A stretch of DNA of 64,000 bases from Candidatus Heimdallarchaeum aukensis (GTDB taxonomy: Archaea; Asgardarchaeota; Heimdallarchaeia; Heimdallarchaeales; Heimdallarchaeaceae): positions 256,001-320,000 of the forward strand of contig CP084166.1 of NCBI GenBank assembly GCA_021513695.1, written 5' to 3'. A program made the position numbers and the translations under genes. The first letter of the stretch is position 1. Every line of letters begins with the position of its first letter. Below are positions 1,780 through 41,481 of this stretch, piece by piece. A model generated the notes under the pieces. That model had not been told where the DNA came from. It worked only from the letters and a program-made list of their open reading frames with translations, and ran no database searches.

Positions 1780-1990
1780 CTGTCTTGCAAGAGAGAAAAC
1801 TAAAGGAAGTTTAATCTCTTGAACTCAACCAAGCCATACAATGCCATGAAGGGGTTGAGACAGACATCATACACGAATCGTGGGAATCATAAAGAAGAAA
1901 AGAACTAAAAACTCTTTTCTTCACTCCACGAGAGACAAAAAAGAAAGAATTACTCCTATAATAGAGAAGGAGTTAAGTTCTTTTTTGTCT
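1780..1990 (-). ncRNA. candidate TnpB guide RNA (omegaRNA/reRNA) and right-end region of the IS200/IS605-type element
   Basis: GC-rich, non-coding block immediately 3' of the tnpB stop and continuous with it on the minus strand. In IS200/IS605 elements the omegaRNA overlaps the tnpB 3' end and extends into the right end. No fold was computed. Confidence 0.35.
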
Positions 1991-5678: not shown

Positions 5679-6830
5679 GGAGAGTGTGAGTATAGTGTAA
5701 ATGTATTTTGCAGATATGGGTTTACACTACACTCTCCATACTAGTAGATTTTTTTTCATATTAAAATATTTTTTGTTTATCTCACGACTGTTTACTCTAT
5801 CCACGTTGGTAACAAATAAATAGAAAGTGGGTTACGAGGGTAAATGATGTATTATGAACAAACCCAAACGTAACCTAGAGAGACTAAGAAAGATTGTGGT
5901 TAAAAAAGCTTTGGAAGGAGAGAAGATAAAAGAGGTAGCTCACAGGTTTATGGTGAGTAGGAAGTTTGTTTACAAGTGGTTGAAGAGGTTCAGAGAGAAC
6001 CCTGAAGGAGAATGGTGGAAGAATAGATCATCTAGACCTAAAACTATACACAGGAAAGTGGATGAGGAGTTAAGAGAGAAGATAAGGGAGTTAAGAGTAA
6101 AGCAAGGAATGAACGTGGAGAAGATAGTTTATCTGTTGAAGAAAGAAGGAAGAGCATTATCGCGAAACACAGTAGTTAAAGTAATAGGAGAGTTAGGTCT
6201 TCCTCTGTGGAGTAATAGAAAAAAGAGAAACAGAACTCAATACAAGAGTTTTGAACGCTCTAGCCCTAACGAACTCTGGCAGATAGATGTGAAAGGACCA
6301 TTCTGGATAGAAGAACAAGGACAACACCTTTATCTCATAACCTTGATAGACGACCACTCACGATTCTGTCTGGGAGCTAAACTCCACCCTTTTGCACCGA
6401 AAAAAGAGCAGATAATAAGTTTGTTAGAAGGAGCAATAGAAAAATATGGACACCCCGAGTCTATCCTCACGGACAATGGAGCACTCTTCTACTCCGTTAG
6501 AGGAGGAACAAGTACCTTCTCCCGTTGGTGTCAAACAGAAGGAATAAAACACATCAGATCTAGAGTTTTTCACCCCGAAACATGCGGAAAAGTAGAAAGA
6601 CTACATGGAACCATCATCCGTGAGATGAAAAGACTAGGACTAACCTACTGTAACTCCGACCTCTCCTTCTACCGCTCTTACTACAATTTTAGCCGTCCTC
6701 ACCAGTCTCTTAACCTCCTTACCCCTGGAGAAAAATTTATGAATCACCCCTACGTTTCTCTAGTGCCCAAAAGTGTAACCCAGGTCTATTGAGTGAACAT
6801 GTTTATCTCACGACCTTTAAAATATTTAAA
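5679..6830 (+). mobile_element. IS481-like insertion sequence (approximate extent)
   Basis: Transposase gene flanked by the 14-bp direct repeat GTTTATCTCACGAC at 5775..5788 and 6801..6814. A 17-bp-stem imperfect hairpin at 5679..5737 lies upstream. Clean terminal inverted repeats could not be identified by eye. Confidence 0.45.
5854..6792 (+). CDS. IS481-like DDE transposase/integrase (rve core with N-terminal HTH)
   Basis: 312 aa. N-terminal HTH (KEVAHRFMVSRKFVYKWLKRF). DDE core: WQIDVKGPF (D), LITLIDDHSRF (D), ILTDNGALF, HPETCGKVERLHGT (E). Codon usage GC-richer than the host. Confidence 0.8.
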   Translation: MNKPKRNLERLRKIVVKKALEGEKIKEVAHRFMVSRKFVYKWLKRFRENPEGEWWKNRSSRPKTIHRKVDEELREKIRELRVKQGMNVEKIVYLLKKEGRALSRNTVVKVIGELGLPLWSNRKKRNRTQYKSFERSSPNELWQIDVKGPFWIEEQGQHLYLITLIDDHSRFCLGAKLHPFAPKKEQIISLLEGAIEKYGHPESILTDNGALFYSVRGGTSTFSRWCQTEGIKHIRSRVFHPETCGKVERLHGTIIREMKRLGLTYCNSDLSFYRSYYNFSRPHQSLNLLTPGEKFMNHPYVSLVPKSVTQVY

Positions 6831-9577: not shown

Positions 9578-10669
9578 ATGACAACAGTTGAAGAGAAAGC
9601 AAAAATAGAAACGAGTACTAATCAATTGATGGAGTTTTTAGAAGAAGTTTCAGGTCTTTCTGCAGCACAAAAAAAGCGAGTTTACAAGACTCTCGTTGAT
9701 TTTGGGATAACTCACCCTTTAGCTTTTAAAAATCGAACAGTTAAAGAACTTACAAGAATAGATGGAATAAGTGAAAATGTAGCAGAAAAAATAGTTGAAC
9801 ACGCTAATCCTTCAAAAAAAGGTGAACTACTATTCAAGTCATTAGCTGAAGTAAAGAAAGAAGAAGATTCAACTATTATGATAAGTACTGGTTCAAAAAG
9901 ATTAGATGAATTACTAGGTGGAGGAATAAGTTTAGGAACTCTAGTAGAATTTTATGGTTCTCCCCAAAGTGGAAAAACCCAATTGTGTTATACAATTGCA
10001 GCAAATACTTTATTGGAAATTGGAGGAGTATTATGGTTAGATACAGAAGGAAGTTTTAGACCTTCAAGATTAGAACAAATATTATTTTATCTTGAAGAAA
10101 AAAAGAAAGAAAAAATAGATGAAAAGCAAAAAGAGAAAATAAATAGCCAATTTAATGTAGCTACAGTCAGAACTCTTGCACAATTAGAACTAGCTCTACA
10201 ACAAGTAGAAAAAGTAATCACTGCTTATGATGTGAAATTGTTAGTTGTAGATAGTCTAATGGATATTTTTAGAGCAGAGTATGGAGGACTAGGAGAATTG
10301 GCTGAAAGACAAAAACATCTAAATGTGGTTGTACACAAAATGATGAAACTAGCTGACGCATATAACATAGCTGTCGTATATACAAATCAAGTCATGGCTA
10401 ATCCAGATCCTTTTGCTACTGCTTTAGATAAAGTTCAGCCTGTAGGAGGTTTCGTTTTAGGTCATGCTAGTGATATACGCATCTGGTTACGAAGAGCCAC
10501 TTCAGCAACAAAAAAGAAATATGACGCTCCAAATGCAAGAAGGGCAATGATTACAGATTGTGGGTGGTTACCTATGGAAGAAACTATTTTCTCTATCGGA
10601 GCTTTTGGAATATGTGATGTTGAAGAAGAGAGTGAAATGAAAGAAGAAGCAAATATTGAAGAGAAATAA
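9578..10669 (+). CDS. radA: DNA repair and recombination protein RadA (archaeal Rad51/RecA homolog)
   Basis: 363 aa. N-terminal HhH domain (TVKELTRIDGISENVAEKIVEHA). SGSKRLDELLGGGISLGTLVEFYGSPQSGKTQLCYT Walker A. LLVVDSLMDIFRAEY Walker B region. VVYTNQV and the GG loop are also present. Lys-rich insertion EEKKKEKIDEKQKEKINSQ. Confidence 0.85.
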   Translation: MTTVEEKAKIETSTNQLMEFLEEVSGLSAAQKKRVYKTLVDFGITHPLAFKNRTVKELTRIDGISENVAEKIVEHANPSKKGELLFKSLAEVKKEEDSTIMISTGSKRLDELLGGGISLGTLVEFYGSPQSGKTQLCYTIAANTLLEIGGVLWLDTEGSFRPSRLEQILFYLEEKKKEKIDEKQKEKINSQFNVATVRTLAQLELALQQVEKVITAYDVKLLVVDSLMDIFRAEYGGLGELAERQKHLNVVVHKMMKLADAYNIAVVYTNQVMANPDPFATALDKVQPVGGFVLGHASDIRIWLRRATSATKKKYDAPNARRAMITDCGWLPMEETIFSIGAFGICDVEEESEMKEEANIEEK

Positions 10670-20400: not shown

Positions 20401-20791
20401 AAATAAATCAGATTATCTTCTAACATTACTTTTACTAGATTCAGAGAATAGAAGTATTTCTAATGCAGAAACAACGATATTCTTCTTAGATACTACTCAT
20501 CTGGTTTTAGAAAATCGTACTCTCTTCACTGATGCAAATGGTTATTTGTATTTAGATGTCAGTACATTTCCTGAAAAAACAACAATGATAAGGATTGTTT
20601 TTGATGGAGATGTGGTATATGAGGATACGATGATCGATATAGAAGTTGAAGATATTGTCAAAACTTATACCCAGAATGTAAAAATCCCGAAAATGAATAT
20701 GATACATATGCTAATCTCTATTCCTGTAAGCATTATAGGATTAATAGTATATTCAAAAAAAGACATTTTCAAGAATCTTAAAAAACATTAG
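14426..20791 (+). CDS. giant cell-surface protein (2121 aa): signal peptide, more than 15 tandem Ig-like/CarboxypepD_reg-like beta-sandwich domains, C-terminal TM anchor
   Basis: N-terminal MKKKLKFMLIMFLVLPLSLNHVLA signal. Recurrent domain-core motifs TDENGYAKT, TNDTGYGKITL, TNSQGYFSM, TDTEGCFYLSY, TNESGIAQLNI, TDSNGFGSYYW, TDVYGQARVEL, TNSSGVAVIAL, TDENGVFSSV, TNSDGEFIFVIP, TDANGYLYLDV, spaced about 90..110 aa apart. C-terminal hydrophobic helix MIHMLISIPVSIIGLIVY followed by KK. Confidence 0.7.
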   Translation: MKKKLKFMLIMFLVLPLSLNHVLAENVIELLNLQSRYPINYKSKDSDVISIKSTIGKDNELSIRKKENSVISSLNNEFVSPYSPKLSYGLYKTFTQISSVPESINKGENISVTSSTKFDLGTLYPVDQGTIYWYDLNCLEEDLGVSTSFVESSKIAISFNLTSPSNYMGVYFDISNLADLTGDVLNVYLTSDLENYSTDYLAKSELSFKYYNSQAGVSGFYAIYDSPTTTQVDNSLLAGETYFVVLEGDSSLRIETSLDSEEYDDNKVYVFSGGSWGLEQGIDAKIRIFSGQKITEKTISSSSNGETTITYQSSQSSFKYHTLVAFYYDTSGMYDLSSDSSDFKVIDSTIPEYISLNSPSIAEYTDYIELKAYVENYYHQELENQTVYFYYSEDNSSWIEIGSSISDSTGVAKINFLISKASGYYYFKAVTQNLETFNYTETTKEQVIIETPLVQTIYGNLSGSDTLETFSLKVQVHDNDNTPISGVMVFFYVEGKTFVYDITDENGYAKTHSYSVNWAVGYYNNKYWVNIDLDTNLYSFPDTQYGDIEVQKSNLQIYSLDNNTINVWINDSYFSFEVKDPENDSVANIEFESILYDPYFDEYVSLGYAFTNDTGYGKITLPAYFKEPGKYTLIIRISDPNYNVIEENLQLELYASSSIIECNLPSSIEYTYNSSLLIEGNVTDINGKPLANANITVKITDPSISSNWVLYIYTTETNSQGYFSMNLTLDVEVDQELVITIHVENYYGSNGEISYYATSSQEYNLLCVRRDAEILNVQDFITQNQETIIISGLLIDSGEPLSGKEIRIIIQEENYYIITDTEGCFYLSYQVNFGTNVNFTVVFGSDNHYNVVNLTRTIFSSPISLNIEIEDVICNPNTLIYLSSYVYSDLGTTPENVQVEFYWYDEQWILLGIVFTNESGIAQLNITSPDKVGEFSWKAIVVQTEDWLESSSNLKLFQIGYHTSISMEAPIQGQYGNEIRINFTVTDQFGQPIGVNINFYIDGLLLSEISTDSNGFGSYYWTIDLSSGNYSFKAVVLNQSIYISSSCIQEFEIIKADVYIQSSDLIMTCNETKTMEFYVYSINGEITNLSLNISLSNGYSTVLTSNSSGYAVWSIPILPSGVYTVNVTFNGDDKYNTISVSYSLVVNKIETNVILFAEDSFYSENYKICGYVENSEGQGIEGIAVNLLINETFTLSTTTLSDGSYLFLVLLLPDYYNIEVQIEGNDYINPSSRSTSVYIYKLSSSLNGKIEFINDTMIITANLTSSSEPVEGQIIYFYVNNSLVGTNLTDVYGQARVELLNITPSLYSVNIEYKGNEIYQESSTNIQAEKDKEQTEIKVSVEEGVYSQSPTNIFISLSSNGEALSNQYIKLNFDNDSYLALTNSSGVAVIALDINYLPGNYNGEIVYEGSEIYSSNAVSVNITIYKSNCVFSSLEIQYLETLTILNGKIEGKYPLENESIFIEINGSSYNVLQTDENGVFSSVLILNPGEYTLTAIFLGNDCYLPVNQSIYFSISKIASGLEIYDFSKTLEYGKEELVEFKLYSYNNESGIEGQISVMINGSLITIVETSSDGLGSFLLPNDLSVGTYILQISFAGDDLYYSTSESITIKVKYKLEISITESDLKNYGIEASISGILNIPLEGISLTLNITNLNYSNVVKTNSDGEFIFVIPSNIPSGNMTIVLFIEKTETILDTNYSFETTRGYGEYSVLFTNLEFDINSTESITGKISYNGDYSSSGKIYIKINDTIVLTQEFNELGEFNIAHSIFDLLPGDYNIKFYFEFDNENFRSQELTIKIEILKLELNLEVTTSSSEIQVYDVLSLNISANYPLDKDRIKLLVNNTEYSNNEFEIIEYENYLTANIVIELAGNINITVIFEENDFFYRSEKSLIIQVLKRDVGFEYNRDTFYYNSSIPLIIELISFKNETDIEFTVLLGERAETGVKTISFILTNIFIGDYQVYMLFEGNSYYNSFNSSFVIHIIPQPTKIVFKENKSDYLLTLLLLDSENRSISNAETTIFFLDTTHLVLENRTLFTDANGYLYLDVSTFPEKTTMIRIVFDGDVVYEDTMIDIEVEDIVKTYTQNVKIPKMNMIHMLISIPVSIIGLIVYSKKDIFKNLKKH

Positions 20792-20848: not shown

Positions 20849-22264
20849 ATGAACAACAAAGAGAAAAATCAAAAACTATCCTTTTTAAAAAATCAATATA
20901 GTAGACTACTCGATAAATTATCAAAGTCAATTGTAGTAAAAATCAGAGAACAAGGAAAACTCCCTTTCTTTTTAGTAGTTTTAATTTGGATAGTTTTCTG
21001 GGGAAGCTCCTTTTACTTTATTACAGTCTTTATGCCTGTTAATTTGTTGTGGTTAAGAGTATTCTTACCTGTATTTATTTCTCTTATTGTTGTTAATGCT
21101 TCAACAGAATTAGGAAAAAAGGTAGTGGGTTATCATAATGAAAAAGAAGAGAAAGTTGAGAAAGAAAGTTCTTCTTCTCTCTTAAGTGAAGAAAAGGACA
21201 TTTCTACAAAAGAAGGTTATTCTTTGAAATCAACTTTCATTCTTCGTGATAAGAAAGGGAAAAAAATTTTTCTTATTAATAAAGGCAAAATTATTCCTGT
21301 TTTTTTGGTTAGCATATTGAGTACAGGAAACAAAGAAAAAGGATACACATTTTCTTCTTTGTTGAATTATCCTTTAAGAAATGAAATGAAAGAAATAGAA
21401 TTTTCAGTTTTAGACACAGATAAAGGAGAATATTTGCTTTTTCTAGGAAAAGAATACAAAACTAAAAACAAAAATTATACAGAATTATTAAAGGAAAATG
21501 AACAGTTTTTCTCAAAAATAGAGATTATAGTTGCTGAATTAAAGAGAGACAATAATTTAGAATTAGAAGCTGTTGAAGATTCAATACTTAATGAGCTTTT
21601 TCCTCTTTATTCTGAAGTATTATGTTGTAAAAATGAAGACACTAACAAAAAGGAACAAAAAATAGAAGAAAAAAATCATCTACAGTTAAAGAGTGAAAAT
21701 AATAATCTAAATAATGCAAATAATGGAAAAGAATATAATCAAAATGGTGAGAGCAGTAATAGATTCAGACCTTTTTCAGTTAAAACTGAACTTACACCAT
21801 ACCAATTAACGAAGGTTGCAGAAAAAAAAGAACTACTATTATCTGAACTCACTTATTCTTTTGATAATTTCATTGATATGTCTAAAGTATTTTATAAAAA
21901 AGCTCTTGAACATCAATTGAACGCAAAGTTTCCTATCTCCGAGGATAATTTTCTTAAACTTATACAACTCTTTGTAGAAAAGAATAAGTATGAATTCTTT
22001 TATCCAAGTTTCTTTAAACTAGAGAAGTATGAATCTTTCAAAGTCTTTGAAACTCCTAGTTCAGAAGAGATAGAAGAGTTTTCTGAAGAACTAGTAAAAG
22101 AATGTATGTTTACTAATTTAGATACTGAAGTAAAGAAAGAGTTGCATTCCTTCCTTACTCAAAAAATCAAAAATAGGAAGCATAGGCAAGAAGTAAAACC
22201 TGTAGGAATTAAAGTATCTTCTACAATTCCTAGGCCATCAGTAAAATCTTTATCAGAATCTTGA
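20849..22264 (+). CDS. membrane-anchored hypothetical protein
   Basis: 471 aa. Two N-terminal TM helices (LPFFLVVLIWIVFWGSSFYFITVF; LRVFLPVFISLIVV), then a long charged/low-complexity domain. Confidence 0.4.
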   Translation: MNNKEKNQKLSFLKNQYSRLLDKLSKSIVVKIREQGKLPFFLVVLIWIVFWGSSFYFITVFMPVNLLWLRVFLPVFISLIVVNASTELGKKVVGYHNEKEEKVEKESSSSLLSEEKDISTKEGYSLKSTFILRDKKGKKIFLINKGKIIPVFLVSILSTGNKEKGYTFSSLLNYPLRNEMKEIEFSVLDTDKGEYLLFLGKEYKTKNKNYTELLKENEQFFSKIEIIVAELKRDNNLELEAVEDSILNELFPLYSEVLCCKNEDTNKKEQKIEEKNHLQLKSENNNLNNANNGKEYNQNGESSNRFRPFSVKTELTPYQLTKVAEKKELLLSELTYSFDNFIDMSKVFYKKALEHQLNAKFPISEDNFLKLIQLFVEKNKYEFFYPSFFKLEKYESFKVFETPSSEEIEEFSEELVKECMFTNLDTEVKKELHSFLTQKIKNRKHRQEVKPVGIKVSSTIPRPSVKSLSES

Positions 22265-22273
22265 GGAGATTGA

Positions 22274-22909
22274 ATGATTGAAATAGTTTTTTTGAATTTC
22301 TTGAATCTCTTTGTTAAAATATGGCTATCAGCTCTTTTAATTAATATTCTACTTTCCACTCTCTTAAAACCAATTTATAAACATCTGTTGGCAATAGGCT
22401 TGGTTTTCAATTTACCAATTAAGCGACTATTTTATTGGATCTATAGAGTACCCATTGAGAATATAGATTGGGAAAACGGTCTAATTAGAACAAAGAAAGT
22501 GAATAATATGGATTGTCTAGCAACTACAGTTGTGATCATGCCTGTATTTATTTTAAGCTACTTATCTAGTTGGTTATTCTATTTTGCAGGTAAAATCTAT
22601 CCCTATGGTTACAAGTTCTTTGGAATTGTTCTTTATATTGTCGCTTCGTTAAGTCTAGCTTTCAGTATTCCTAACTTTGAGGAATTGAAATTGTTTAATA
22701 ACATTAATCTTCATTCCTCTTTGGTCTATTTACTAAAATGGGTATTTGTAGTTATAGTTGTCTTTTCAATAGTTGAGTTTACTTCTATCTCTCTTGATGT
22801 ATTAACTACAGTGATATTAGTTCTTTTAGCTACTCCATTTTATAGTTATAAAGAAGATGAAGAAAATGTAGAGAATATTAAGAAAATTATTGGTGATCCA
22901 TTTGCATAA
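22274..22909 (+). CDS. integral membrane protein
   Basis: 211 aa, about 5 hydrophobic helices. Overlaps the next gene start by 20 nt. Confidence 0.4.
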   Translation: MIEIVFLNFLNLFVKIWLSALLINILLSTLLKPIYKHLLAIGLVFNLPIKRLFYWIYRVPIENIDWENGLIRTKKVNNMDCLATTVVIMPVFILSYLSSWLFYFAGKIYPYGYKFFGIVLYIVASLSLAFSIPNFEELKLFNNINLHSSLVYLLKWVFVVIVVFSIVEFTSISLDVLTTVILVLLATPFYSYKEDEENVENIKKIIGDPFA

Positions 22910-23525
22910 ATGGACTCTTTCCAAAAATGAGCGAATGATACATCTTTATGGTCCCCCAGCAAGTGGTAAGACTACTTTAGCAATTCAATTATCTAGAAAA
23001 GTCTTTCCTCGCTCAACAATTTATTTCATTACTTCGCATAGAAACGCAATTACAAAAAGAGCAAAACAGATACTAAACAAGAATTATCTTAAAGAATTTT
23101 ATTTAATTAAAGTTTCTAGTTTAGATGATTTATTTGAAAAAATTCAATCTATTAATAGCTTAGGAAAAACAATAGGATTGATTGTAATAGATTATATCTC
23201 TGATTTTGTTAGAGGGAAGCTATACAAGGAAGAAGTAAAAAACAAGGTAAGGAAGATATTAGAAAAACTTTTTATTTTCTCCTCACAAAAAGATTGTTTA
23301 GTTGTGATAGTCAATAGTTTTTCAATAAAAAATGAAGCTCCTTTGAATTCTTTAGTTGAAAGTTTTTGTGACATGTCAGTTTATTTGTCGATTAAAGATG
23401 ACAAATACAATTTGGAATCAAATGGTAAAAATATAAAAAGAACTTTTGTAGTCGATGAAAAAATTATTTCCAGCTTCGTTATTGATGAAAAAGGAATTAA
23501 AGATTTAATTATTGTGTCTGAATAA
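22890..23525 (+). CDS. radB: RadB-like short RecA-superfamily ATPase (archaeal RadA paralog)
   Basis: About 200 aa with no N-terminal HhH domain. HLYGPPASGKTTLAIQL Walker A matches RadB-type (GPyASGKTTLALQ). GLIVIDYISDFVR Walker B region. CLVVIVNSFS strand. ORF-track start is a TTG; an in-frame ATG lies at 22935. Confidence 0.65.
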   Translation: MVIHLHKWTLSKNERMIHLYGPPASGKTTLAIQLSRKVFPRSTIYFITSHRNAITKRAKQILNKNYLKEFYLIKVSSLDDLFEKIQSINSLGKTIGLIVIDYISDFVRGKLYKEEVKNKVRKILEKLFIFSSQKDCLVVIVNSFSIKNEAPLNSLVESFCDMSVYLSIKDDKYNLESNGKNIKRTFVVDEKIISSFVIDEKGIKDLIIVSE

Positions 23526-23585: not shown

Positions 23586-24056
23586 ATGTATTCAGAGCAA
23601 GAAGTGATAAGAAAAATAACAGAAACTTGGAAATTTGAAAATAAAGTATGCGTGAAAGAACTACAAATTCCTTTAGTAGGCAAAAATATCAATTATCCTT
23701 TTTTAGAAAATAGAAAAAGCATTCGTATAGATCTTGCTTGCTATGATATTGTATCTGATAAAATTATTTTTGTTGAAGCAGAAAATGGTCTGTGGCTTCC
23801 TCATCCCCAAATTTATAGACCTTTTTGTGATATGTTATATGTTGCTACTCCCTATGATGATAGTTACTATAGAGAAAAGCAACTTGAGTGGGCAAAAAAT
23901 GAAGGAATAGGAGTAATTGAAGTTCTTTATGATGGTTACATTATAGAAACATTAAAACCTGTAGTTTTTCCTGATTCGATGGATATCTCTTTAAGAGAAG
24001 AAGTTCTAGCACATTTTGTTAAGAAACTCAAAAAAAACGAAAAAATAGCTGATTGA
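23586..24056 (+). CDS. hypothetical protein, possible PD-(D/E)xK (restriction-endonuclease-fold, Hjc-like) nuclease
   Basis: 156 aa. IRIDLACYDIVSDKIIFVEAENG resembles the D...(E/D)xK core strands of Hjc (vDLvA....IEVK), but the lysine position is not conserved. Weak. Confidence 0.3.
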   Translation: MYSEQEVIRKITETWKFENKVCVKELQIPLVGKNINYPFLENRKSIRIDLACYDIVSDKIIFVEAENGLWLPHPQIYRPFCDMLYVATPYDDSYYREKQLEWAKNEGIGVIEVLYDGYIIETLKPVVFPDSMDISLREEVLAHFVKKLKKNEKIAD

Positions 24057-24113: not shown

Positions 24114-27100
24114 ATGAAAGGAACTGCTATTGCCACATCAAAATTTCAAGGTAAGAATCAAGCTATTTATTCAATAAAAAAAGATGATAAAATTACTTTA
24201 TACTGTGCGTTCATTATTAGACCAAAAAAGAAAGAAGTTGAGAAAAAAGGAGATTATGAAAAAAAAACTACTATTTTTGTAACAGATACTAAAAGTCTTT
24301 TTTTGCCTTTGAATATTGATTCAAGTCTAAAAATTATGCTTCACCGCTTTATTTTACCAGCTAAACTCAGAAAAATAACAAAAGAAAAAAATAAAGGAAT
24401 AGAAATCTCTAGAAAAAAAGAAGAGAGTGAAGAAATCAATGTATTTTTAACTTATTATATCTTTAAAATCTCAAAAACTTATGATCTTACCGTAAATTTA
24501 CTTTCAATGAATACATTGTTAGAAGATTTTGCAGAAACTGTTAGATCTAATTTAAAAGAGTTGTTCTTATCTTTAGGAGCAGTAGGAAGAATAACAGGAG
24601 AATTATTAGAAAAAATCGTTTGTTTGAATGTTACAGATAAATCGTCTATTATCAATAACAACTCTAAAGAATTTTTAACAGAGCTTGCAAAAGAGTTTGT
24701 TGTAATAGAAAAAAGTACAGAAATCCAATCAATTTTCCTCCCTGGTCCTTCCGTAGATTTAAGAACTTCGAGTGTATTTTTTACTCCTTCAAGAATAGAA
24801 TCTGCTTTTCCTTTAGGGAAGACGGAAGAAGGTTTTCTTGTAGGCTTTCCTCCCTCTTTCTCTTACCCCATACTTTTGTGTGGAGATAAGAAAATAAGAA
24901 AAATTTTACTCTCCAAAATTTTAGAAAATTCATCTGCTAAATTTATTGTTTTAGGAGAGATAAATGGAAAAATAAGAAAAAAGAATGTAAAGTTAAGTTT
25001 AGGAGAGAATTTTACATTTAATATCTTATCTCCTATGTTTATGCGAAAAGTACTGTCAGAGAGAGATTATTGGCGTTATCTGAGTGATTTTCTACTCATA
25101 GTTAAAGAAGTAACCGAAGTTAGAAATGAAAATCTTTTACAAATTCCTGAAATAATTAAATTTTATATCCAAGAATATGAACAAAGTGAAGATAACCTCT
25201 TTACTCCTTTTGATTATAGTTCTGTAACTATTGACGATATTTATACAATGCTTACATCTGAACCTGGAGGATTAATAATTTCAGATTATCAATTAGCTGC
25301 TTTACGTTCTGTTTTTACTGATATTAGCGATAATTCAGTTAGCACGGTAACTAATATTAATGGAAAACATGGAATTGAAGCATTAATTGACCAGAACCAT
25401 ATAATTGACTTCAGTAAACATTCAATAAAAGTTAGAAAAATATTCGTTTATTCGTTATTGCTTCAACTTTATTTATATTTTCAAACAGATTTAATTTCTA
25501 AACCAGTAATAGTAGTAATCGACAATGCAGAATTATTCTTTTCAACTGAAGTTGAAAGAACTTTTATTTCAAAACTACTCACACTATTTGAATCTCTACC
25601 TGTAAATATTATCCTTTCAACAAGTTTTCCTTCTCATCTAGCTCTTACTGCTTTTGATTTAACAAATAATAGAATTATAGCTAATCTTCGCTCTGCTAAG
25701 TGTGCAAAATTAATTGCTGATTCACATAATTTATTAAAAGAACAGAAAGAAATGCTTCTTCGCCTTCCACAAAATTCCTTTCTTATCCTCCGGGAAGATT
25801 TTTTTGAGAAACCCTTTCTTGCTTACTTACAAAGAGAAGATCTAAATTTGTTTTCTAATTCCAGACGATTCAATCTTGAAAAATTGGATTCATTAGTAGA
25901 TATTGGAAACACTAGTGCAATTTTAGAAGATGAAAATAGAGTAATTGAACCTATTTTTGATGAAGAAGATCTTCTTCCTATTATGATTGATATTTTAAGA
26001 AAACTTGATTCTAAAGCTCAAAGGGGAATCAACTCTGAATCATTGGTTAATCTCTTTCCTGACTATCCTGCAATTGAAGTTAAGAATGCTGTAAAATTAT
26101 TAGAGTTAAGAGGATTGATTTTTCGTGAGACAGTTGATAAAGAAGGAAGAAAAGGTGAATTTTGGACAAAAATAAGTCCTTTAGGCAAGAAAATGTTATC
26201 TAGATTCGAGATTCAATCCATAGCAAAGAATGATAAAATTGACAAAGTTGAACGAAAAGAAGAGGAGATAACTATTTTAAAAAATGAACAAAGTCATAAT
26301 GAAAAAATATCTAACAAAAAGCAAAACAATGGAAAAAAAGATTCTTTAGAACAATCAGAAGTTATTAACCATTTAGAGAAGGTACAAAACAATTTAAAAA
26401 ATAGTAGGAATCCTGTTGATGCTTTTTTGGATTCAATAATGAAAGTTGAAAAAAAAGCCATACAAATATTCTCAAGAAAAGGTAAAAAGATAGGTAAAAT
26501 TTCAGATTTTTACATTTTGTTACATGACTTTATCCAAAAGGCAAAAGCTGTAGATTTCAATATTCAATCAGAGCTAAAAGAGTTTGAGCAGTACTTAAAC
26601 TCACTTTATGATGTTTTAGAAGATAGTGAATCCCTTGAACAAATGTCAGATGAAATATTAGAAAGAGTAATGAGAAAAGGATTAAATCTCTTAGATCAGA
26701 TACATGTTAAATGTTCTTTTGATAAGATCGAAAGAAACTCCAGTAATCTTCCAGAACTTCTTGAAAAAGAATTAAATTCTGATAAATGGGAAAACATTGA
26801 AACTAAATTTGATGATGAAGTAGTGAGTGATATTAAGCATAATATAAAGAATGACATACAATCAATGTTCTTAACTGATTCTGAAAAACAAGTTTTTCAG
26901 GTACTTAATCATGCATTAGAAGCTCCTAAAGACAGTTTTATTGATTATGCTAGAAAAGCTATAGCAAGACTAATGAAAATAAAAATGCAGTTTTACCCTA
27001 ATCTCGATGATAAAGAGTTTATTATTATTTTTGTAAGATTCTTTGAAAAAAATCAATTACCAATACCGTTTAATGAATCGATTCTGATGGTTGATGAACT

Positions 27101-27269
27101 AGCTTTTCTTAGCACAATTTCCAAACAAAAGAAAAAGGAAATAATCGCGAAAATAATAGAGGAAAATAACTCATTTGTGTTTGATTTAGATGATAAAAGT
27201 AAAGATAGTCTTGTTATTCAGTTAAAGGAAATTGTCTCAAAAAGTCTAAGAAAGTTAAAAGAGGAATAA
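24114..27269 (+). CDS. large hypothetical protein (1051 aa), possibly a degenerate P-loop NTPase-like domain plus a helical C-terminal half
   Basis: No canonical GxxxxGK[ST] found by eye. Walker-B-like PVIVVIDNAELFF and sensor-like IILSTSF blocks are present. The C-terminal 450 aa are charged and helical. Confidence 0.45.
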   Translation: MKGTAIATSKFQGKNQAIYSIKKDDKITLYCAFIIRPKKKEVEKKGDYEKKTTIFVTDTKSLFLPLNIDSSLKIMLHRFILPAKLRKITKEKNKGIEISRKKEESEEINVFLTYYIFKISKTYDLTVNLLSMNTLLEDFAETVRSNLKELFLSLGAVGRITGELLEKIVCLNVTDKSSIINNNSKEFLTELAKEFVVIEKSTEIQSIFLPGPSVDLRTSSVFFTPSRIESAFPLGKTEEGFLVGFPPSFSYPILLCGDKKIRKILLSKILENSSAKFIVLGEINGKIRKKNVKLSLGENFTFNILSPMFMRKVLSERDYWRYLSDFLLIVKEVTEVRNENLLQIPEIIKFYIQEYEQSEDNLFTPFDYSSVTIDDIYTMLTSEPGGLIISDYQLAALRSVFTDISDNSVSTVTNINGKHGIEALIDQNHIIDFSKHSIKVRKIFVYSLLLQLYLYFQTDLISKPVIVVIDNAELFFSTEVERTFISKLLTLFESLPVNIILSTSFPSHLALTAFDLTNNRIIANLRSAKCAKLIADSHNLLKEQKEMLLRLPQNSFLILREDFFEKPFLAYLQREDLNLFSNSRRFNLEKLDSLVDIGNTSAILEDENRVIEPIFDEEDLLPIMIDILRKLDSKAQRGINSESLVNLFPDYPAIEVKNAVKLLELRGLIFRETVDKEGRKGEFWTKISPLGKKMLSRFEIQSIAKNDKIDKVERKEEEITILKNEQSHNEKISNKKQNNGKKDSLEQSEVINHLEKVQNNLKNSRNPVDAFLDSIMKVEKKAIQIFSRKGKKIGKISDFYILLHDFIQKAKAVDFNIQSELKEFEQYLNSLYDVLEDSESLEQMSDEILERVMRKGLNLLDQIHVKCSFDKIERNSSNLPELLEKELNSDKWENIETKFDDEVVSDIKHNIKNDIQSMFLTDSEKQVFQVLNHALEAPKDSFIDYARKAIARLMKIKMQFYPNLDDKEFIIIFVRFFEKNQLPIPFNESILMVDELAFLSTISKQKKKEIIAKIIEENNSFVFDLDDKSKDSLVIQLKEIVSKSLRKLKEE

Positions 27270-27281
27270 AAAGGGAGAAGG

Positions 27282-29393
27282 ATGAATGAAATAGAGTTAA
27301 GTTCTGAAAAACTAGAGGATTTTCAACAGAGGTGTATGGAAACTTTTTTGAAAAAAGAAAATTGCCTTATTTCTTCTCCTTCTTCTACAGGAAAAACATT
27401 TCTAGTTAAAGAATATATTAAAAATTACATTATAGAAAACTACTCAACTATTCTACGATCTCCTAAAAAAATGAAAATAGTGCTACTGTTTCCTTATAAG
27501 GCGATTGCTATACAAGAATTTAACTCACTAGTCGATTTTGCAGAAAAAAAGATGATCAAGATATTCTTATCTGTTGGAGGAGTAAAGTTAAACAAAGAAA
27601 CAGTAATGGAAGCAAATATTATTGTTGGAACATTTGAAAAGTTTTACTTCATTTTGAATCTATTCCCTGAAATTCAAAAGAACTTGAAAATATTGGTAAT
27701 AGATGAATTTCACTTTTTAGGTTATAATAGGGGAAAAGTGATAGAAAGTATATTATTAAAAGTTAAGGAAAACAAAAATACACAGATTATTCTTTTATCC
27801 TCATCAATCGGGAATCCTGAGGAAATAGCAAGTTGGTTAGGCTTTAAACTTTTGCAATATAATAAACGCTTAGTACCGTTGGAATTGAATATAAAAAAAA
27901 TTGAAAAATCTCTTATACAAGAAATATTTTCAATCAGCAAAGCTAACTTACCTGCTATTATATTTCAAAACTCAAGATCTAAAGTAGAAAAATTAGCTCT
28001 AGAATTAGCAAAAAAAAGAAAAGATGTATTGATAAAGAATTTCGAAGAGTTTTTCGTAAATTCTCCTAACCTTATTTCAATAATGGAAGAAGTTTATTTC
28101 CCTGATAAACTAAAAGAAGCAATTTCAAAGAGAGTGGCTTATCATCATGCAGGTTTAAGTGATATAGTTAGAGTATTTGTAGAACAATTATTTCTTTCTG
28201 GAGAGATTGATTACTTGATTTCTACTTCCACTCTGTCAGCTGGAATAAATCTTCCAGCTAAAATGTCAATTTTTGTTATAGAAAGAAAACAATCTGAAGT
28301 TGATAATAATTTAATTTTTCAAATTCTGGGGAGAGCAGGAAGATTTGAGTTTCAAGATAAAGGAATAGGAATTCTATTAATAAGACCAGCTTATTTGAAA
28401 GAATATAGCGACAAACTTTTTGACCAAAGAGGAAAACCTATTTACAGTAGTTTAAAAAGCCAATTTTTTGACTATGATTTTTTGATCAAATATTTTCTGG
28501 TAGAAATCGCATTTTCTAAGGAACCTGTTTCAGTAAGGATAGAAGATTTATTAAAAAAAATCGAGAATTCACTATGGTTTTATAGTAACAAAGAAATATT
28601 CTTAGTATTTAACTCTAAAGATGTTCATTATGCACTTTTTTCTCAAGCCTACTCAAGTTTGGATTATGAAGAGATAGTTGATTATTATGAGAAATTAGAT
28701 GAAGCTTTTGGTATAAAGCCTTCTAATTTACAACTCGTTTCTAAGCAAGAAAAAGGCAAAGGTAACTTCTCTTTTATAATTTTAGAGAATGAAAAAAAAT
28801 ACAAAGTAATTATGAATTTAGAAAGAAGACAATGTTCTTGTCAGTCAAAGTACAGCAATTATCTTTGTAGACATCAGCGTTTTTTGATTAAGATGTATCC
28901 TTTCATGAAAGAATATTGGTTAAATAAATATGGAATAATCGATTGGCTGATCGATAATGGTTTTTTAGTTAGAAGCAAAGGAATGAAGGTTAATCCTACT
29001 TTATTGGGAAAAATTTCTGCAAAATTTTTTATTCACCCTTATTCTTTTCTTCATTTTCTTCATTTATTAATTATCTATCCTAACATTAACTTTTCCTCTT
29101 TTTTTACTAAAGTTGTTCTATTCGATGAACAAATAAAGAGAGATATTAAGTCAAATGAACTAACAAATATACAAGCTTTGCAAATATTTCAACTATTAGT
29201 AAAACAAGAACCATTAACAATATGCTCAAAATACAATATTTCAGACAGTCTATTAGAAAATTGGCAAGAAATATATACCAAGTACAAGAGTTTATTTTTT
29301 GAATTAAAGAAACTTATGGGAAAAAATCTAGCAAAAGGGAACTTTACAAATAATTTCCTCACGAAAAATGAAGTTGAAGAAACAATTCGTTAA
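27282..29393 (+). CDS. Ski2/Hel308-like SF2 DExH helicase with an embedded SWIM-type zinc finger
   Basis: 703 aa. Motif I SSPSSTGKT, Ia PYKAIAIQ, II VIDEFHFLG, III LLSSSIG, V TSTLSAGINLPA (compare Hel308 TPTLAAGVNLPA), VI ILGRAGRFEF. SWIM signature CSCQSKYSNYLCRH (CxCx8CxH) near residue 520. Confidence 0.7.
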   Translation: MNEIELSSEKLEDFQQRCMETFLKKENCLISSPSSTGKTFLVKEYIKNYIIENYSTILRSPKKMKIVLLFPYKAIAIQEFNSLVDFAEKKMIKIFLSVGGVKLNKETVMEANIIVGTFEKFYFILNLFPEIQKNLKILVIDEFHFLGYNRGKVIESILLKVKENKNTQIILLSSSIGNPEEIASWLGFKLLQYNKRLVPLELNIKKIEKSLIQEIFSISKANLPAIIFQNSRSKVEKLALELAKKRKDVLIKNFEEFFVNSPNLISIMEEVYFPDKLKEAISKRVAYHHAGLSDIVRVFVEQLFLSGEIDYLISTSTLSAGINLPAKMSIFVIERKQSEVDNNLIFQILGRAGRFEFQDKGIGILLIRPAYLKEYSDKLFDQRGKPIYSSLKSQFFDYDFLIKYFLVEIAFSKEPVSVRIEDLLKKIENSLWFYSNKEIFLVFNSKDVHYALFSQAYSSLDYEEIVDYYEKLDEAFGIKPSNLQLVSKQEKGKGNFSFIILENEKKYKVIMNLERRQCSCQSKYSNYLCRHQRFLIKMYPFMKEYWLNKYGIIDWLIDNGFLVRSKGMKVNPTLLGKISAKFFIHPYSFLHFLHLLIIYPNINFSSFFTKVVLFDEQIKRDIKSNELTNIQALQIFQLLVKQEPLTICSKYNISDSLLENWQEIYTKYKSLFFELKKLMGKNLAKGNFTNNFLTKNEVEETIR

Positions 29394-29431: not shown

Positions 29432-31276
29432 TTGAAGCTGATGAAAAGAGATAATTTCCTACTTACATTTTTAATTTTAATTATAGTATGTACAATTTTA
29501 CTTATTCCGCTTTATTTTACTGAAGCTCACTATTTAGAACAAGAGGAAGAAAAAAAGCAAATAAAAAATGAGCTTCAATCTACTATCCTTATTCCTCATG
29601 ATATTGTCTTTAATTTCACAGATAAACTTTCTAAATACACTTACTCTTTTGTTCAGAATCTTACATTAAGTGGATTATATGGTTTAGAAATTCTGTTTAA
29701 AACTGGTGGGAGTTTAGCTTTAAGTGATACCTTAAAAGTAAAGATAGTTATGGAGGATAGAATAAATATCAGCTTCACAATAGATAAATTATTTCAAGAC
29801 TCCAATATTCATTCTTTAACAAAAAGTCTTTATTGTGAAAATATTGGAGAAGAAGCAAAGATAACAATATATTTTGAAGGACAATGTTTCATTGGAAAAG
29901 AGGGTAATCTAACTCTTTTCAAAACTATTAATCTTTATTCTTATGATATTCTATCTTTAAAAACAGAAAAAATTATTAGTCCTGACGTTATCCCTCATTC
30001 TATCTCTTTTTCAGGGAATTCTTTCTCCAAAAAGACTTTTTCTGTAAAATCATTTTTTAATGTAGAAAATACAAACATCACAAAAATTAAGTTAAATTTT
30101 ACATTTAATACAAATGATTTTGTTTCACTAGAAAGAAAAATAACTTTTCAGATAGGTTCAAACCTTACAGAAAAGGATTTTAGTTCAGGATTAAACACAA
30201 TTTTATTGTCATTAGATTGTGGAAGTGATCTAAATATTTTGAATATCTCTTTTACAGTAGGTTATAGCTCTGATATCATACATTTAGAGGATTTTAGTTT
30301 AAGTATTGAAGTAGAGAAAGAAGAAGAAACAAGTAAAGAAAGAGAAATTCTTGAATTTAAAGAATGGGAAGGAGATAAGATAGATTTAACTTTTGACATC
30401 TCAATTCTAAAAAATGAGCAGAGTTCTAAGGAGTTAATAATAAACTTAAATCTTAGTTGTGGTTTTGAAGGTGCAACTGTAACTCCTTACATTGAATTTA
30501 GAATTATTTCTGGAATATATACTATTTATACAGGAAAAGTAATGAGTTATGAACAAAGCGAAGAAGAGTTAATAAAAATAAATACTTATACCTACACTTA
30601 CAATAAACCTCTATTAGTTAACTTTTACGCTAAATTAGAAAATAGTGGGAAAGGACAGATCTTTATTTACAATTCTTCTAATCTTACTGCTTCAAAAATC
30701 CCACAAATGTCTTCTAAAGGTTTATTTAGGGAAGTAGAATCAGAGAAAAACGTCTACACTCCTCAACTAGGTGCAGTCATCCTAAATTACTACGATGTCT
30801 TTTTCAATGATTATTCATTAACAATAGATTATGTTTTTAATTTGACTTTTACCCTTTTCACAGATTATGATGAAGTTTTTGATAGAATAAATGTTGGAAT
30901 AACAATAGGCGTAAATACTTCAATAAATAAGATTTTTAGTAAACCTGGTAAGATCTCAATTACTGAAGACGTTAAAATCTATCAAGGATATAACGAGGTT
31001 AAAATCAAGTTAACAATTTATGGTTCAGGAACCTATGTCTCTCTCAGAAATATAACTTATAGACTTAATCCGATTAAAGATTTTTCTTTTCAAGATGAAA
31101 ATCAAACAATTAGTTCGGTAAATATTCCCTTGATAAAACCCCCTTATACAATAAGTTTAGGAATAAGTTCGATTTTAGGTCAATGGGTAATTGGAGGAGT
31201 ATTCGCTAGAGTGTTTAACAGTAGCAAAAAGAAAAATAAACTCTCTAAAAATATGAAATATAAGTTAGAGTTTTAA
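29432..31276 (+). CDS. bitopic membrane/surface hypothetical protein
   Basis: 614 aa. N-terminal anchor FLLTFLILIIVCTILLIPLYF and C-terminal hydrophobic segment ISLGISSILGQWVIGGVFA followed by a KKKNK tail. Middle region beta-rich and Asn/Ser/Thr-rich. Confidence 0.4.
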   Translation: MKLMKRDNFLLTFLILIIVCTILLIPLYFTEAHYLEQEEEKKQIKNELQSTILIPHDIVFNFTDKLSKYTYSFVQNLTLSGLYGLEILFKTGGSLALSDTLKVKIVMEDRINISFTIDKLFQDSNIHSLTKSLYCENIGEEAKITIYFEGQCFIGKEGNLTLFKTINLYSYDILSLKTEKIISPDVIPHSISFSGNSFSKKTFSVKSFFNVENTNITKIKLNFTFNTNDFVSLERKITFQIGSNLTEKDFSSGLNTILLSLDCGSDLNILNISFTVGYSSDIIHLEDFSLSIEVEKEEETSKEREILEFKEWEGDKIDLTFDISILKNEQSSKELIINLNLSCGFEGATVTPYIEFRIISGIYTIYTGKVMSYEQSEEELIKINTYTYTYNKPLLVNFYAKLENSGKGQIFIYNSSNLTASKIPQMSSKGLFREVESEKNVYTPQLGAVILNYYDVFFNDYSLTIDYVFNLTFTLFTDYDEVFDRINVGITIGVNTSINKIFSKPGKISITEDVKIYQGYNEVKIKLTIYGSGTYVSLRNITYRLNPIKDFSFQDENQTISSVNIPLIKPPYTISLGISSILGQWVIGGVFARVFNSSKKKNKLSKNMKYKLEF

Positions 31277-39669: not shown

Positions 39670-41481
39670 TTAAAGAAAATTTGTTATAGCTTTTTGTATT
39701 TGTTCAATTGTTTTGTATCTTTCAAAGCGGAATTCTTTGTTAAATCTAGTTCCTCTTGGGTCTAACAGTATGTGAACTGCTTTATCATTTTCGTTTCTAA
39801 TTGCTCTTCCAAAAGATTGAATTATTCTTTGAACAGTAGGAATAATTATTGTAAAATCTATTGCGAATTTTTTTCCATATTTTTTAGTTAATTCTTCTCT
39901 TAGAATTTGATTTTTTGGGTCAGGTGGAGGAAAAGGGAGGGCTGTGATAATTACTCCTTTGATAATACTCTTACCATTTTTTGTGAATTCTATTCCCTCC
40001 GAGATCTTTCCTCCAACGACACAGGCAACAGCTTTTTTTTCTTCAGCATTAGATAATATTGCTTGAACTGTAGAAATGTCCATTTTTGGTGTTTCTGAGA
40101 TGTCGACATCTAGAAAATAATTCTCTGTAAGGTCGTTTAGATATTTATAAGATGGGCAGAAAACAAGAACATGACCAGGAATAGCTTTATGTATCCTGTC
40201 GATTGCTTTAGCAATTTTTAAGAAATATTTTTCATCTCTGTATTGAAATTTACCATTATAATCTTTGTTTGACAAAATCATGTATTTTGAGTTCTTCGAA
40301 TTGGTTGAATAAAGTTGCAATTTTTCTGATTTAGGAAGACTAAAAAGCCTTTGAAATGAGTGAATAGGTTCAAAGCTTCCACTCATCATTACTATTTTTC
40401 TTGCGTCGACTATTTTCCTTAAAATAGTTGATGGTAGAGGATTTATAGTTGATAATCTTTTTGTGTCTGATATTACTCTCTTTCCTTGACTTTCTTTTAT
40501 AAAGTGGTAAGCAATGTAAGCATTGATTGATTTAATCTCTTCTTTCCTATATTGAGCATTGAGTTTCTTTAATATCTCTTTTTCAAAATTCTTTAGTTCT
40601 TCCTCATCCAATTTATAATTAAAAACCTGTGTTTCAGTTATTTTTTCTAATAGTTCTTGAATAAAAGGATGGTTATTTTCTTCTACTGCTTTTTCTAAAA
40701 TGCTTTTAGTAATCTCTAAATTTAGAACTTGGAATAAATTATGTGCTTCATCTACTGCAATTATGGCTTTAGAAAGGTCAATTTTTAACCTGTTAAAGAG
40801 ATAATTAAAAAGAAAGTAATCTTCAAGAAAAGGGTAGCTGGTTATTACTACATCTGCATTTTGAGCAAGAATAAAATTGACATAATATGGACAATAATTA
40901 GTATTTTCATAGACAGATACCAAATCTTCTTTAGAATTCATATCAGGATAAACTGAAAAAAGGTTTTTGGCAATCTTTTTGATTTGTGAATTTGTAAGGA
41001 GTTTTGTTTTCTGTTTTAAGGTACATTTAGTCAAAGAACAGATGTGGGTATACATCTCTCCAGGGTATTTTTTATTTCTCTTAACACACAATTCATTTTT
41101 TCCCAAGATGGTTAGAACTAAAGGTAAATTGAAATTAAAATGCTCCTTTAATTTGTCCCAATTGGCAATTATTTTTCTATAAATAAGTCCAAATTCTTTC
41201 AAGAAGACGTTTATCTGAGCTTTAGTTCTTACAAAAATAATGACTTTTTCTTCTGGTTTCTTAACTGCGAGCAGACTAACAAGTAAAGCAGCAGTTTTTC
41301 CTACTCCTGTTGTAGCAGAGACAAGTAAAGGATTCTTTGTAGTTAAAACCCTTTGAATAAAGCTTAATTGATCCTTTTTGATTTCTGGAAAAGGGAAAAG
41401 ATCTTTTACTCTATTCCATTCTTCATCCTGTATTTGTGTTATTGACCTATTTAGGTGCTGATTTAGAACCATTTCATCCAT
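39670..41481 (-). CDS. xpd: XPD/Rad3-family iron-sulfur DNA helicase
   Basis: 603 aa. Walker A VSATTGVGKTAALL. DEAH box IIAVDEAHNL. Four-Cys cluster between them (CVKRN...HICSLTKCTLKQ...YCPYY), consistent with the XPD FeS domain. Motif VI QSFGRAIRN. Confidence 0.8.
   Translation of the reverse strand: MDEMVLNQHLNRSITQIQDEEWNRVKDLFPFPEIKKDQLSFIQRVLTTKNPLLVSATTGVGKTAALLVSLLAVKKPEEKVIIFVRTKAQINVFLKEFGLIYRKIIANWDKLKEHFNFNLPLVLTILGKNELCVKRNKKYPGEMYTHICSLTKCTLKQKTKLLTNSQIKKIAKNLFSVYPDMNSKEDLVSVYENTNYCPYYVNFILAQNADVVITSYPFLEDYFLFNYLFNRLKIDLSKAIIAVDEAHNLFQVLNLEITKSILEKAVEENNHPFIQELLEKITETQVFNYKLDEEELKNFEKEILKKLNAQYRKEEIKSINAYIAYHFIKESQGKRVISDTKRLSTINPLPSTILRKIVDARKIVMMSGSFEPIHSFQRLFSLPKSEKLQLYSTNSKNSKYMILSNKDYNGKFQYRDEKYFLKIAKAIDRIHKAIPGHVLVFCPSYKYLNDLTENYFLDVDISETPKMDISTVQAILSNAEEKKAVACVVGGKISEGIEFTKNGKSIIKGVIITALPFPPPDPKNQILREELTKKYGKKFAIDFTIIIPTVQRIIQSFGRAIRNENDKAVHILLDPRGTRFNKEFRFERYKTIEQIQKAITNFL

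Follow-up and report, generated by a model that had tools for sequence, protein, structure and literature searches.

A HerA-fold protein family of Asgard archaea without catalytic motifs, encoded in a conserved cluster with recombination genes

What is the role of a protein of 1051 residues that carries NTPase-like β-strands but no Walker A motif and is encoded among genes for recombination proteins? The question is raised by a gene of Candidatus Heimdallarchaeum aukensis (GenBank assembly GCA_021513695.1, contig CP084166.1, positions 256,001 to 320,000 of the forward strand; these 64,000 nucleotides are referred to as the window, and the protein as the target). The core of the target belongs to the HerA/FtsK/VirB4 superfamily, and the catalytic motifs of that superfamily are lost in the whole family of its orthologues, which is restricted to Asgard archaea, mostly Heimdall, in the databases searched. 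The target may best be explained as a non-catalytic HerA-fold scaffold of a helicase-nuclease module of recombination or repair, a reading with a probability of about one half.

The reading frame is uninterrupted on the + strand from the ATG at 24114 to the stop codon at 27269 (1051 codons), in a window of ~28% G+C. The full length of ~1040–1050 residues is kept by orthologues in more than 20 genomes, and the gene is therefore not an artefact of gene fusion or frameshift. An earlier note, made from the sequence alone, had suggested either a HerA/VirB4/AAA-like NTPase scaffold, inactivated or strongly diverged, with a long helical domain attached, or something entirely novel. It had quoted three peptides, which are located at residues 251–263 (YPILLCGDKKIRK, a possible degenerate P-loop), 464–476 (PVIVVIDNAELFF, reminiscent of Walker B) and 498–505 (NIILSTSF, reminiscent of sensor 1).

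A HerA/FtsK-type core that has lost its catalytic motifs

The likeness of these peptides to NTPase motifs goes beyond chance, as hhalign pairs all three with the Walker A, Walker B and sensor-1 strands of HerA. With the family represented by an alignment of 21 sequences (A2) and HerA by seven canonical HerA-like proteins (A3), the comparison gives a probability of 98.1% and an E-value of 1.1e-13 over 315 columns, corresponding to residues 232–572 of the target (profile positions 246–590). An exhaustive search of 1.84e9 cluster representatives with the family hidden Markov model returns 34 matches at E<=1e-3, of which about 20 are family members or their fragments. The remaining matches cover profile positions ~430–615 and contain DUF87 or HerA_C wherever Pfam recognises anything. 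Canonical HerA/DUF87 proteins are the sole outgroup in this search, and each of them carries a canonical Walker A.

The structure of the target, predicted as a monomer by AlphaFold2 (AF2), has a mean predicted local distance difference test score (pLDDT) of 52 and a predicted template modelling score (pTM) of 0.38, with pLDDT values of ~55–84 in the core (residues 230–560). Comparison of this model with the PDB by Foldseek, a check which the earlier note had proposed, gives 51 matches at E<=1e-3, and the top 50 all belong to the HerA/FtsK superfamily. The best single matches are VirB4 (4ag5_A, TM-score 0.62, E 1.6e-8) and TrwK; the others include DUF4297-HerA, Sir2-HerA, TdpA, Deinococcus HerA, TrwB (TM-score ~0.5) and FtsK.

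One model of the PADLOC library, mad8, matches the target (E 9.4e-9, residues 458–558, 100 of 314 model positions). It behaves as a generic model of the HerA core: canonical HerA-like proteins match it at 1e-25 to 1e-29, as strongly as they match the HerA models. The MADS models, to which mad8 belongs, derive from HHpred/PDB alignments, and other members of the target family do not match mad8. MADS was rejected as an identity for the target, the match being partial and the model generic, and no MADS kinase, methylase or specificity genes are found among the neighbours. Pfam finds no family for the whole target at E<=0.01, nor for the fragment of the core at E<=1, so that DUF87 and HerA_C stay unmatched, and sequence searches of Pfam, NCBIfam and the PDB with the target give no match.

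Sequence profiles, the mad8 match and the predicted fold agree on a HerA/VirB4-type core, and residues ~232–572 belong to the HerA/FtsK/VirB4 superfamily and not to the classical AAA+ proteins. The HerA/VirB4 assignment proposed earlier is thus supported, and since the fold is known, the target is not categorically new. Neither outcome that the earlier note had named as refuting it is seen: the target contains an additional strand catalytic E (ASCE) core, and BrxC, PglY and all other named families are unmatched. As for BREX, PADLOC gives only mad8 for the target, and no BREX components are found among its neighbours.

The catalytic motifs of HerA are altered one after another. In the P-loop, the target sequence YPILLCG-----DKKIRK is paired with HILVLGSTGSGKSNTA of HerA, five residues of the glycine-rich loop being gone. 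The Walker B strand VIVVIDNAELFF is paired with ILVIVDEAHNYF of HerA, and D470 stands in the place of the Walker B Asp, where it is kept in at least 90% of the family alignment. The position of the catalytic Glu is taken by N471 in the target and by Asp in most relatives. This segment reads VVIDNAE in the window and IDDAE in most members; in the closest relative it reads VVINNAE, with NN at the two acidic positions. In the sensor-1 strand IILSTSFPS is paired with LCIVTQSPS of HerA and the Gln is replaced by Ser or Pro, the HerA-invariant pair T458/Q459 corresponding to ST[SP] in the family. The Arg finger is absent: the HerA-invariant segment ExRKYG is paired with LFES/LENS upstream of the sensor strand, and the invariant R448/K449 with a hydrophobic residue and Glu.

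The regular expression [AG]xxxxGK[ST] has no match in the target or in any full-length family member, in agreement with what had been found by eye for GxxxxGK[ST], and every canonical HerA-like outgroup protein carries it. Over 26 loci the motifs read hhh[AGSC]GDKKTRE and IDDAELFF. The position after GDKK varies within the family (GDKK[T/I/N]R), and in the clade of the window the change has gone further, Thr having become Ile and DD having become DN or NN. In three distant Asgard relatives the loop reads GGLQKQR, GEEKTN and GEEETR and the Walker B site ENAE, PQME and ENLD. Being common to the 26 loci and to these distant relatives, the loss of the motifs is ancient and predates the split of the lineages. 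Support for the inactivation proposed earlier comes from the P-loop deletion and from the residues exchanged at the sites of the catalytic Glu, sensor 1 and the Arg finger; these losses extend to the whole family, which would probably not hydrolyse ATP.

The core is preceded by a β-rich domain and a helical linker (residues 1–230), for which the AF2 model has strands at 19–124 and a helix at 132–154 with pLDDT mostly 35–74. This region has no hhalign match to HerA and no Pfam match; it stands where HerA has its N-terminal barrel, and an identity as a HAS-barrel would be positional only. The core is followed by a predicted winged-helix domain similar to the C-terminal winged helix of RPA32. The AF2 model of residues 620–690 has the order H-H-H-strand-strand at pLDDT ~70–79, and Pfam RPA_C gives weak matches to three of three divergent members (E 0.006 and 0.0036 for two of them, and 1e-4, which exceeds the gathering score, for the third). 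Sequence conservation is strong here (RGINxES...GRKGEYWTKITPxGKK), and the distant relatives retain the domain. Residues 700–760 form a variable, charged linker, and the distal part is conserved. For residues 700–1051 AF2 predicts helices only, with pLDDT mostly <55, the all-helical domain itself spanning residues 760–1051, and the long helical domain proposed earlier is thus recovered, at low confidence, in the C-terminal third. Residues 700–1051 have no Pfam match, and hydropathy gives no transmembrane segment in the target. Because the AF2 model is weak overall, the N-terminal and C-terminal domains are left without assignment.

Hexameric HerA (DUF87/HerA_C) ATPases such as archaeal HerA-NurA and bacterial Sir2-HerA, DUF4297-HerA and TdpA share with the target the RecA-like core and its strand order, with Walker B, the sensor strand and the following helices aligned, and they too are encoded beside a nuclease-type partner. 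Unlike these proteins, the target has no P-loop, catalytic Glu, sensor Gln or Arg finger and no Pfam DUF87/HerA_C match, it adds a winged helix and a helical tail of ~350 residues, and it is found only in Asgard archaea. Its partners are a DUF1052/NucS-like PD-(D/E)xK protein and a superfamily 2 (SF2) helicase and not NurA, Sir2 or DUF4297. The HerA-NurA pair of end resection was considered and set aside: Pfam finds no NurA, Mre11 or Rad50 gene among the scanned open reading frames of the window (about half of them, including all cluster genes) or among the called genes of the related loci.

Distribution and inheritance of the cassette

A word-indexed search of 5.8e9 proteins finds seven relatives of the target, and those with a source name come from Heimdallarchaeaceae. 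A scan of one genome per GTDB species gives 26 loci, all from Heimdallarchaeota or Asgard metagenome-assembled genomes, with at most one target gene per genome record. One locus comes from Ca. Heimdallarchaeum endolithica PR6, a complete genome in which the orthologue shows 82% identity. Three far more distant proteins of the same architecture (1072–1207 residues) are encoded in other metagenome-assembled Asgard genomes, including one of Kariarchaeaceae. No relative was found on viral contigs. The family is unannotated: its members are labelled hypothetical in each source and fall under no Pfam or NCBIfam family. No description of it was found in the literature, and the conserved operon that joins the target to recombination genes is likewise undescribed, with what appears to be a whole family of pseudo-enzymes at its centre.

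The window proteins were compared with all fetched loci by tblastn and blastp, and the cluster is conserved at 25–45% identity over Heimdall genomes. Its usual order is a 614-residue surface or transmembrane protein, a 471-residue membrane protein, a 211-residue polytopic membrane protein, the RadB/KaiC-like ATPase, a 156-residue protein, the target, a helicase, RadA and a surface protein of ~2100 residues with immunoglobulin (Ig)-like domains. The window and its close relatives have a rearranged order, with RadA and the giant protein upstream and the 614-residue gene downstream, and the set of genes is still together. In at least 10 other Heimdall genomes RadA lies directly 3' of the helicase gene; in the window it is located 13 kb upstream. 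The 156-residue gene, the target and a helicase persist in every contig and in the distant lineages, and their order is kept down to ~33% identity. Stop and start codons overlap in independently called genes, the helicase start lying over the target stop in most genomes. The earlier note had placed the target between the RadB-like and helicase genes; this is correct for the helicase side, and on the other side the conserved 156-residue gene intervenes. The earlier note had missed this nuclease-like gene and the winged helix, and also that the family is conserved across Asgard archaea and linked to RadA, Hef and XPD.

In pairwise comparisons the identity of the target rises and falls with that of the helicase (r 0.99), the 156-residue protein (r 0.96) and RadA (r 0.98), so the cassette is inherited as a unit that keeps pace with a core gene. 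The genes beside the cassette in the distant lineages provide an independent link to DNA repair. One contig (L034, 11316–13715) carries a second DEAD helicase and Hef, with DEAD, ERCC4 and HHH_5 domains; in the Kariarchaeaceae contig (L035, 5214–6962) an XPD-like helicase directly abuts the homologue of the 156-residue protein; a third contig (L036, 13847–16207) carries Hef and a Rad51-like gene. The window, too, contains an XPD-like repair gene, which is loosely linked to the cassette (Table 1).

The helicase is of the Ski2/Hel308/ASCC3 type. It matches Hel308-type NCBIfam models at 1e-47, and its sequence matches in the PDB are ASCC3 (1.7e-49), Brr2 (4e-45), Pyrococcus Hjm/Hel308 (2.6e-42) and HamB (1.6e-9); the HamB models of PADLOC are matched at 1e-34. 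Motifs I (PSSxGKT), II (DEFH) and VI (QxxGRAGR) are intact in 19 orthologues, from which the enzyme is predicted to be active. The same 19 orthologues keep all four ligands of a SWIM zinc finger, CxCx8CxH. Eukaryotic SWIM proteins (Shu2/SWS1) partner with Rad51 paralogues, and in this cluster the genes of a SWIM helicase, a RadB-like Rad51 paralogue and RadA occur together. In one metagenome-assembled genome (L031, 13080–15252) the helicase is split into two open reading frames (342 and 380 residues), owing either to a frameshift or pseudogene or to an error of assembly.

The RadB-like protein belongs to the RecA superfamily and has an intact Walker A, GPPASGKT. It reaches the NCBIfam model TIGR02237 radB at 2.5e-14, far below the cut-off, matches RadB in the PDB (2cvf) at E 0.0017, and is conserved upstream in 27 loci. 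It has 211 residues in the window's clade and ~330–370 in most other lineages (for example L007, 82–1158). The extra length is a charged N-terminal extension of ~150 residues, which bears no similarity to the adjoining membrane protein.

A possible scaffold and its alternatives

Rings of the HerA/FtsK type are known as motors that resect DNA ends, pump DNA, drive secretion or serve in several anti-phage systems. The target, as proposed here, has retained the RecA-like core, can probably still oligomerise, and would act as a platform, ring or clamp that is no motor itself. Its winged helix and tail may hold DNA, partner proteins or both. It would couple the Hel308/ASCC3-type helicase, the only motor, to the PD-(D/E)xK-fold 156-residue protein, with the RadB-like ATPase and RadA acting downstream, and the module might process stalled forks, branched DNA and junctions or DNA ends for homologous recombination. 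The fold, domain order, motif losses, gene linkage, co-inheritance and partner folds are observed directly; that the target oligomerises, contacts its partners, binds DNA, lacks ATPase activity and serves in repair is what the model would add to them.

The nearest functional analogy is found in Sulfolobus, where the hexameric ATPase PINA works with Hjm (Hel308) and the PD-(D/E)xK resolvase Hjc on forks and Holliday junctions (PMC6061704). Both sets combine a ring-forming protein of P-loop fold, or one predicted to be so in the case of the target, with a Hel308-family helicase and a small PD-(D/E)xK nuclease or nuclease-like protein, and in both the C-terminal domain may serve for contacts with nucleic acids or proteins, a KH domain in PINA and the winged helix in the target. 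PINA, which contains a PIN domain, is active both as an ATPase and as a helicase (PMC6061704), whereas the target has no catalytic motifs and the helicase of the cassette would be the only motor. The analogy is one of function, and homology is not claimed.

Platforms of the HerA type are also seen among the Foldseek matches, where HerA rings carry nucleases in the HerA-DUF4297 and HerA-NurA structures. Domains 2 and 3 of EccC/EssC, from type VII secretion, are degenerate FtsK/HerA-like modules, which serve as binding or regulatory platforms without catalysis. Unlike the target, they are extra domains beside one active motor, whereas the only HerA-like domain of the target is dead and its context is DNA repair.

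Several observations weigh against the scaffold. The AF2 model, as given above, is weak overall. The 156-residue protein has a PD-(D/E)xK fold assigned but is missing the canonical Lys of the (D/E)xK motif, which reads ExE, and its nuclease activity is therefore not assured. The three membrane or surface genes and the giant Ig-like protein are conserved neighbours, which a purely cytosolic repair model does not explain. Finally, what is left of the active site belongs to the most conserved part of the protein: four residues (G257, D258, R262 and E473) are invariant and three more (K259, K260 and D470) are kept in at least 90% of sequences, against a mean column identity of 55%. This suggests that the pocket is still in use and has kept a ligand, possibly a nucleotide.

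The main biochemical rival builds on this conservation. In this view a non-canonical site made of the short GDKK[T]R loop, D470 and E473 would still bind ATP, ADP or some other phosphorylated ligand, and the target, as part of the same module of repair, would work as a regulated switch or a slow ATPase. The Lys-Thr and Asp-Asp pairs kept in most members (GDKKTRE, IDDAELFF) agree with such a switch, but five residues of the loop that wraps the phosphates are gone, the Arg finger and sensor Gln are absent, Thr has become Ile and DD has become DN or NN in the window's clade, and neither the loop nor the Walker B site is retained in the distant relatives listed above. A cryptic switch is unlikely, with a chance well short of one in two.

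A membrane-anchored machine of DNA translocation, similar to the Ced or competence systems, would account for the membrane genes. In it the VirB4/HerA-like ring would dock on the membrane proteins, the SF2 helicase would pull DNA through, the nuclease would trim it, and the RadB-like protein and RadA would recombine it. VirB4 and TrwK are the best single fold matches, the three conserved membrane or surface genes are apparently coupled translationally to the RadB-like gene and stay linked despite the rearrangement of the window, and a giant Ig-like surface protein comes after RadA in many genomes. The ring, however, has no motor, the membrane genes resemble no recognisable component of secretion or uptake, the gene overlaps rest partly on mechanical starts of open reading frames, and beside the distant Asgard relatives the membrane genes are absent and only the repair genes remain linked. 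The likeness to VirB4, TrwK and the coupling protein TrwB of type IV secretion is confined to the predicted core: unlike these proteins, the target has no sequence match, Walker motifs or transmembrane segment. An identity as VirB4 was rejected, as the fold resemblance is present and the Walker motifs are absent, and the neighbouring membrane genes match no type IV secretion family, no such genes being recognised nearby. A translocation machine has a small chance of being correct.

A similarly small chance is given to a wider version of the repair model, in which the cassette would be an ancient, vertically inherited, Asgard-specific recombination machine made of the RadB-like and DUF1052/NucS-like proteins, a dead HerA-like ring with an RPA32C-like winged helix and the SWIM helicase, with RadA adjoining. 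The ring would hold the Hel308-family helicase and the Rad51 paralogues in order, and the arrangement would prefigure the eukaryotic partnerships of HELQ with RAD51 paralogues and of SWIM proteins (Shu2/SWS1) with RAD51 paralogues, and a membrane tether through the co-conserved membrane proteins would be possible.

Anti-virus defence is the weakest of the alternatives and is improbable. The helicase would detect foreign DNA and a dead ring would both assemble and activate the PD-(D/E)xK nuclease, as in HerA-plus-nuclease or Hachiman-like systems; HerA rings with PD-(D/E)xK or Sir2 effectors are among the fold matches (8zir, 8j4u, 8sub, 8wfd), the helicase matches the HamB models of PADLOC and the target matches mad8, and in one related contig a restriction-modification pair directly follows the cluster, but the lineage-wide position beside RadA, the low copy number, the divergence that tracks RadA, the repair genes (and not defence genes) beside the distant relatives and the lack of viral relatives all stand against it, and the helicase is far nearer to ASCC3, Brr2 and Hjm than to HamB. 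No PADLOC HerA model matches the target or an orthologue, and no PADLOC model matches the 156-residue protein or the other family members; Sir2-HerA and DUF4297-HerA were rejected as identities for the target accordingly. Hachiman, which pairs the HamB helicase with the DUF1837 nuclease HamA, was considered for the adjoining helicase and does not fit. The restriction-modification pair (RE_BsaWI and N6_N4_Mtase; L003, 10896–13007) lies directly after the 614-residue gene of its contig, and the window has no such pair.

Were the scaffold correct, the cassette would be a module of DNA repair, so far unannotated, in Heimdall and other Asgard archaea and would offer concrete candidates for the pre-eukaryotic organisation of helicase, nuclease and Rad51-paralogue assemblies. 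A lineage-wide branch of the HerA/FtsK fold would have given up ATP hydrolysis yet stayed for long under strong constraint in the archaea closest to eukaryotes. At the least, the annotation "HerA-like pseudo-ATPase with wH (winged-helix) domain" can be given to ~30 orphan proteins of ~1050 residues, together with their 156-residue partners.

Features of the window and other neighbouring genes

Table 1. Coordinates in the window of the target gene, its domains and motifs, and the neighbouring genes (aa, amino acids).
Feature	Position	Strand	Evidence or remark
Target gene: HerA/VirB4-fold pseudo-ATPase (putative) with winged helix and helical tail	24114..27269	+	1051 aa
N-terminal region, aa 1-230: β-rich domain and helical linker (predicted)	24114..24803	+	AF2
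HerA/FtsK/VirB4-like ASCE core, aa 232-572	24807..25829	+	hhalign, profile search, Foldseek
Degenerate P-loop SYPILLCGDKKIR, aa 250-262, glycine-rich loop deleted	24861..24899	+	hhalign, family alignment
Degenerate Walker B strand VIVVIDNAELFF, aa 465-476	25506..25541	+	hhalign, family alignment
Sensor-1-equivalent strand VNIILSTSFPS, aa 497-507	25602..25634	+	hhalign
Winged-helix domain, RPA32C-like, aa 620-695 (predicted)	25971..26198	+	AF2, Pfam RPA_C in divergent members
Charged linker and C-terminal all-helical domain, aa 700-1051 (predicted)	26211..27266	+	AF2
156-aa gene: PD-(D/E)xK-fold (DUF1052/NucS-like) nuclease-like protein	23586..24056	+	always directly upstream of target
Helicase, Ski2/Hel308/ASCC3-type SF2, predicted active, 703 aa	27282..29393	+	Pfam DEAD, Helicase_C; always directly downstream of target
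SWIM zinc finger CxCx8CxH (C518, C520, C529, H531), helicase aa 518-531	28833..28874	+	Pfam SWIM E 0.007
RecA-superfamily (RadB/KaiC-like) ATPase, 211 aa, intact Walker A	22890..23525	+	Pfam AAA_25, KaiC, others
RadA recombinase	9578..10669	+	Pfam Rad51 1.9e-51
Two conserved membrane-protein genes: 471 aa (N-terminal transmembrane helices) and 211 aa (~5 transmembrane helices)	20849..22909	+	hydropathy
614-aa β-rich protein with transmembrane anchor(s)	29432..31276	+	synteny, hydropathy
XPD-like helicase	39670..41481	-	Pfam DEAD_2, Helicase_C_2; ~10 kb downstream of cassette, just beyond TSP3-repeat gene; loosely linked

The 471-residue and 211-residue membrane genes are syntenic with the cassette in ~20 loci, and the 614-residue gene is found on the upstream side of the cluster in other Heimdall genomes and on its downstream side in the window. 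These three membrane or surface genes remain linked to the cassette after the rearrangement (for example L028, 4442–8420). Their proteins have no match in Pfam or the PDB.

The giant protein upstream of the cassette (14426–20791, 2121 residues) contains Big_1, Big_3_5, CarboxypepD_reg and A2M-like domains, and its orthologue is the one which comes after RadA in many Heimdall genomes. A second giant surface protein (31474–39414, 2646 residues) contains many TSP3 repeats and a Binary_toxB-like domain, and part of its gene (34–38 kb) has a G+C content of 35–38% against the background of ~28%. Two mobile-element genes at the left edge of the window encode a TnpB/Cas12f-like protein with a Cas12f1-like_TNB domain (1989–3443, - strand) and an integrase (rve) of insertion sequence (IS) type with helix-turn-helix domains (5854–6792, + strand).

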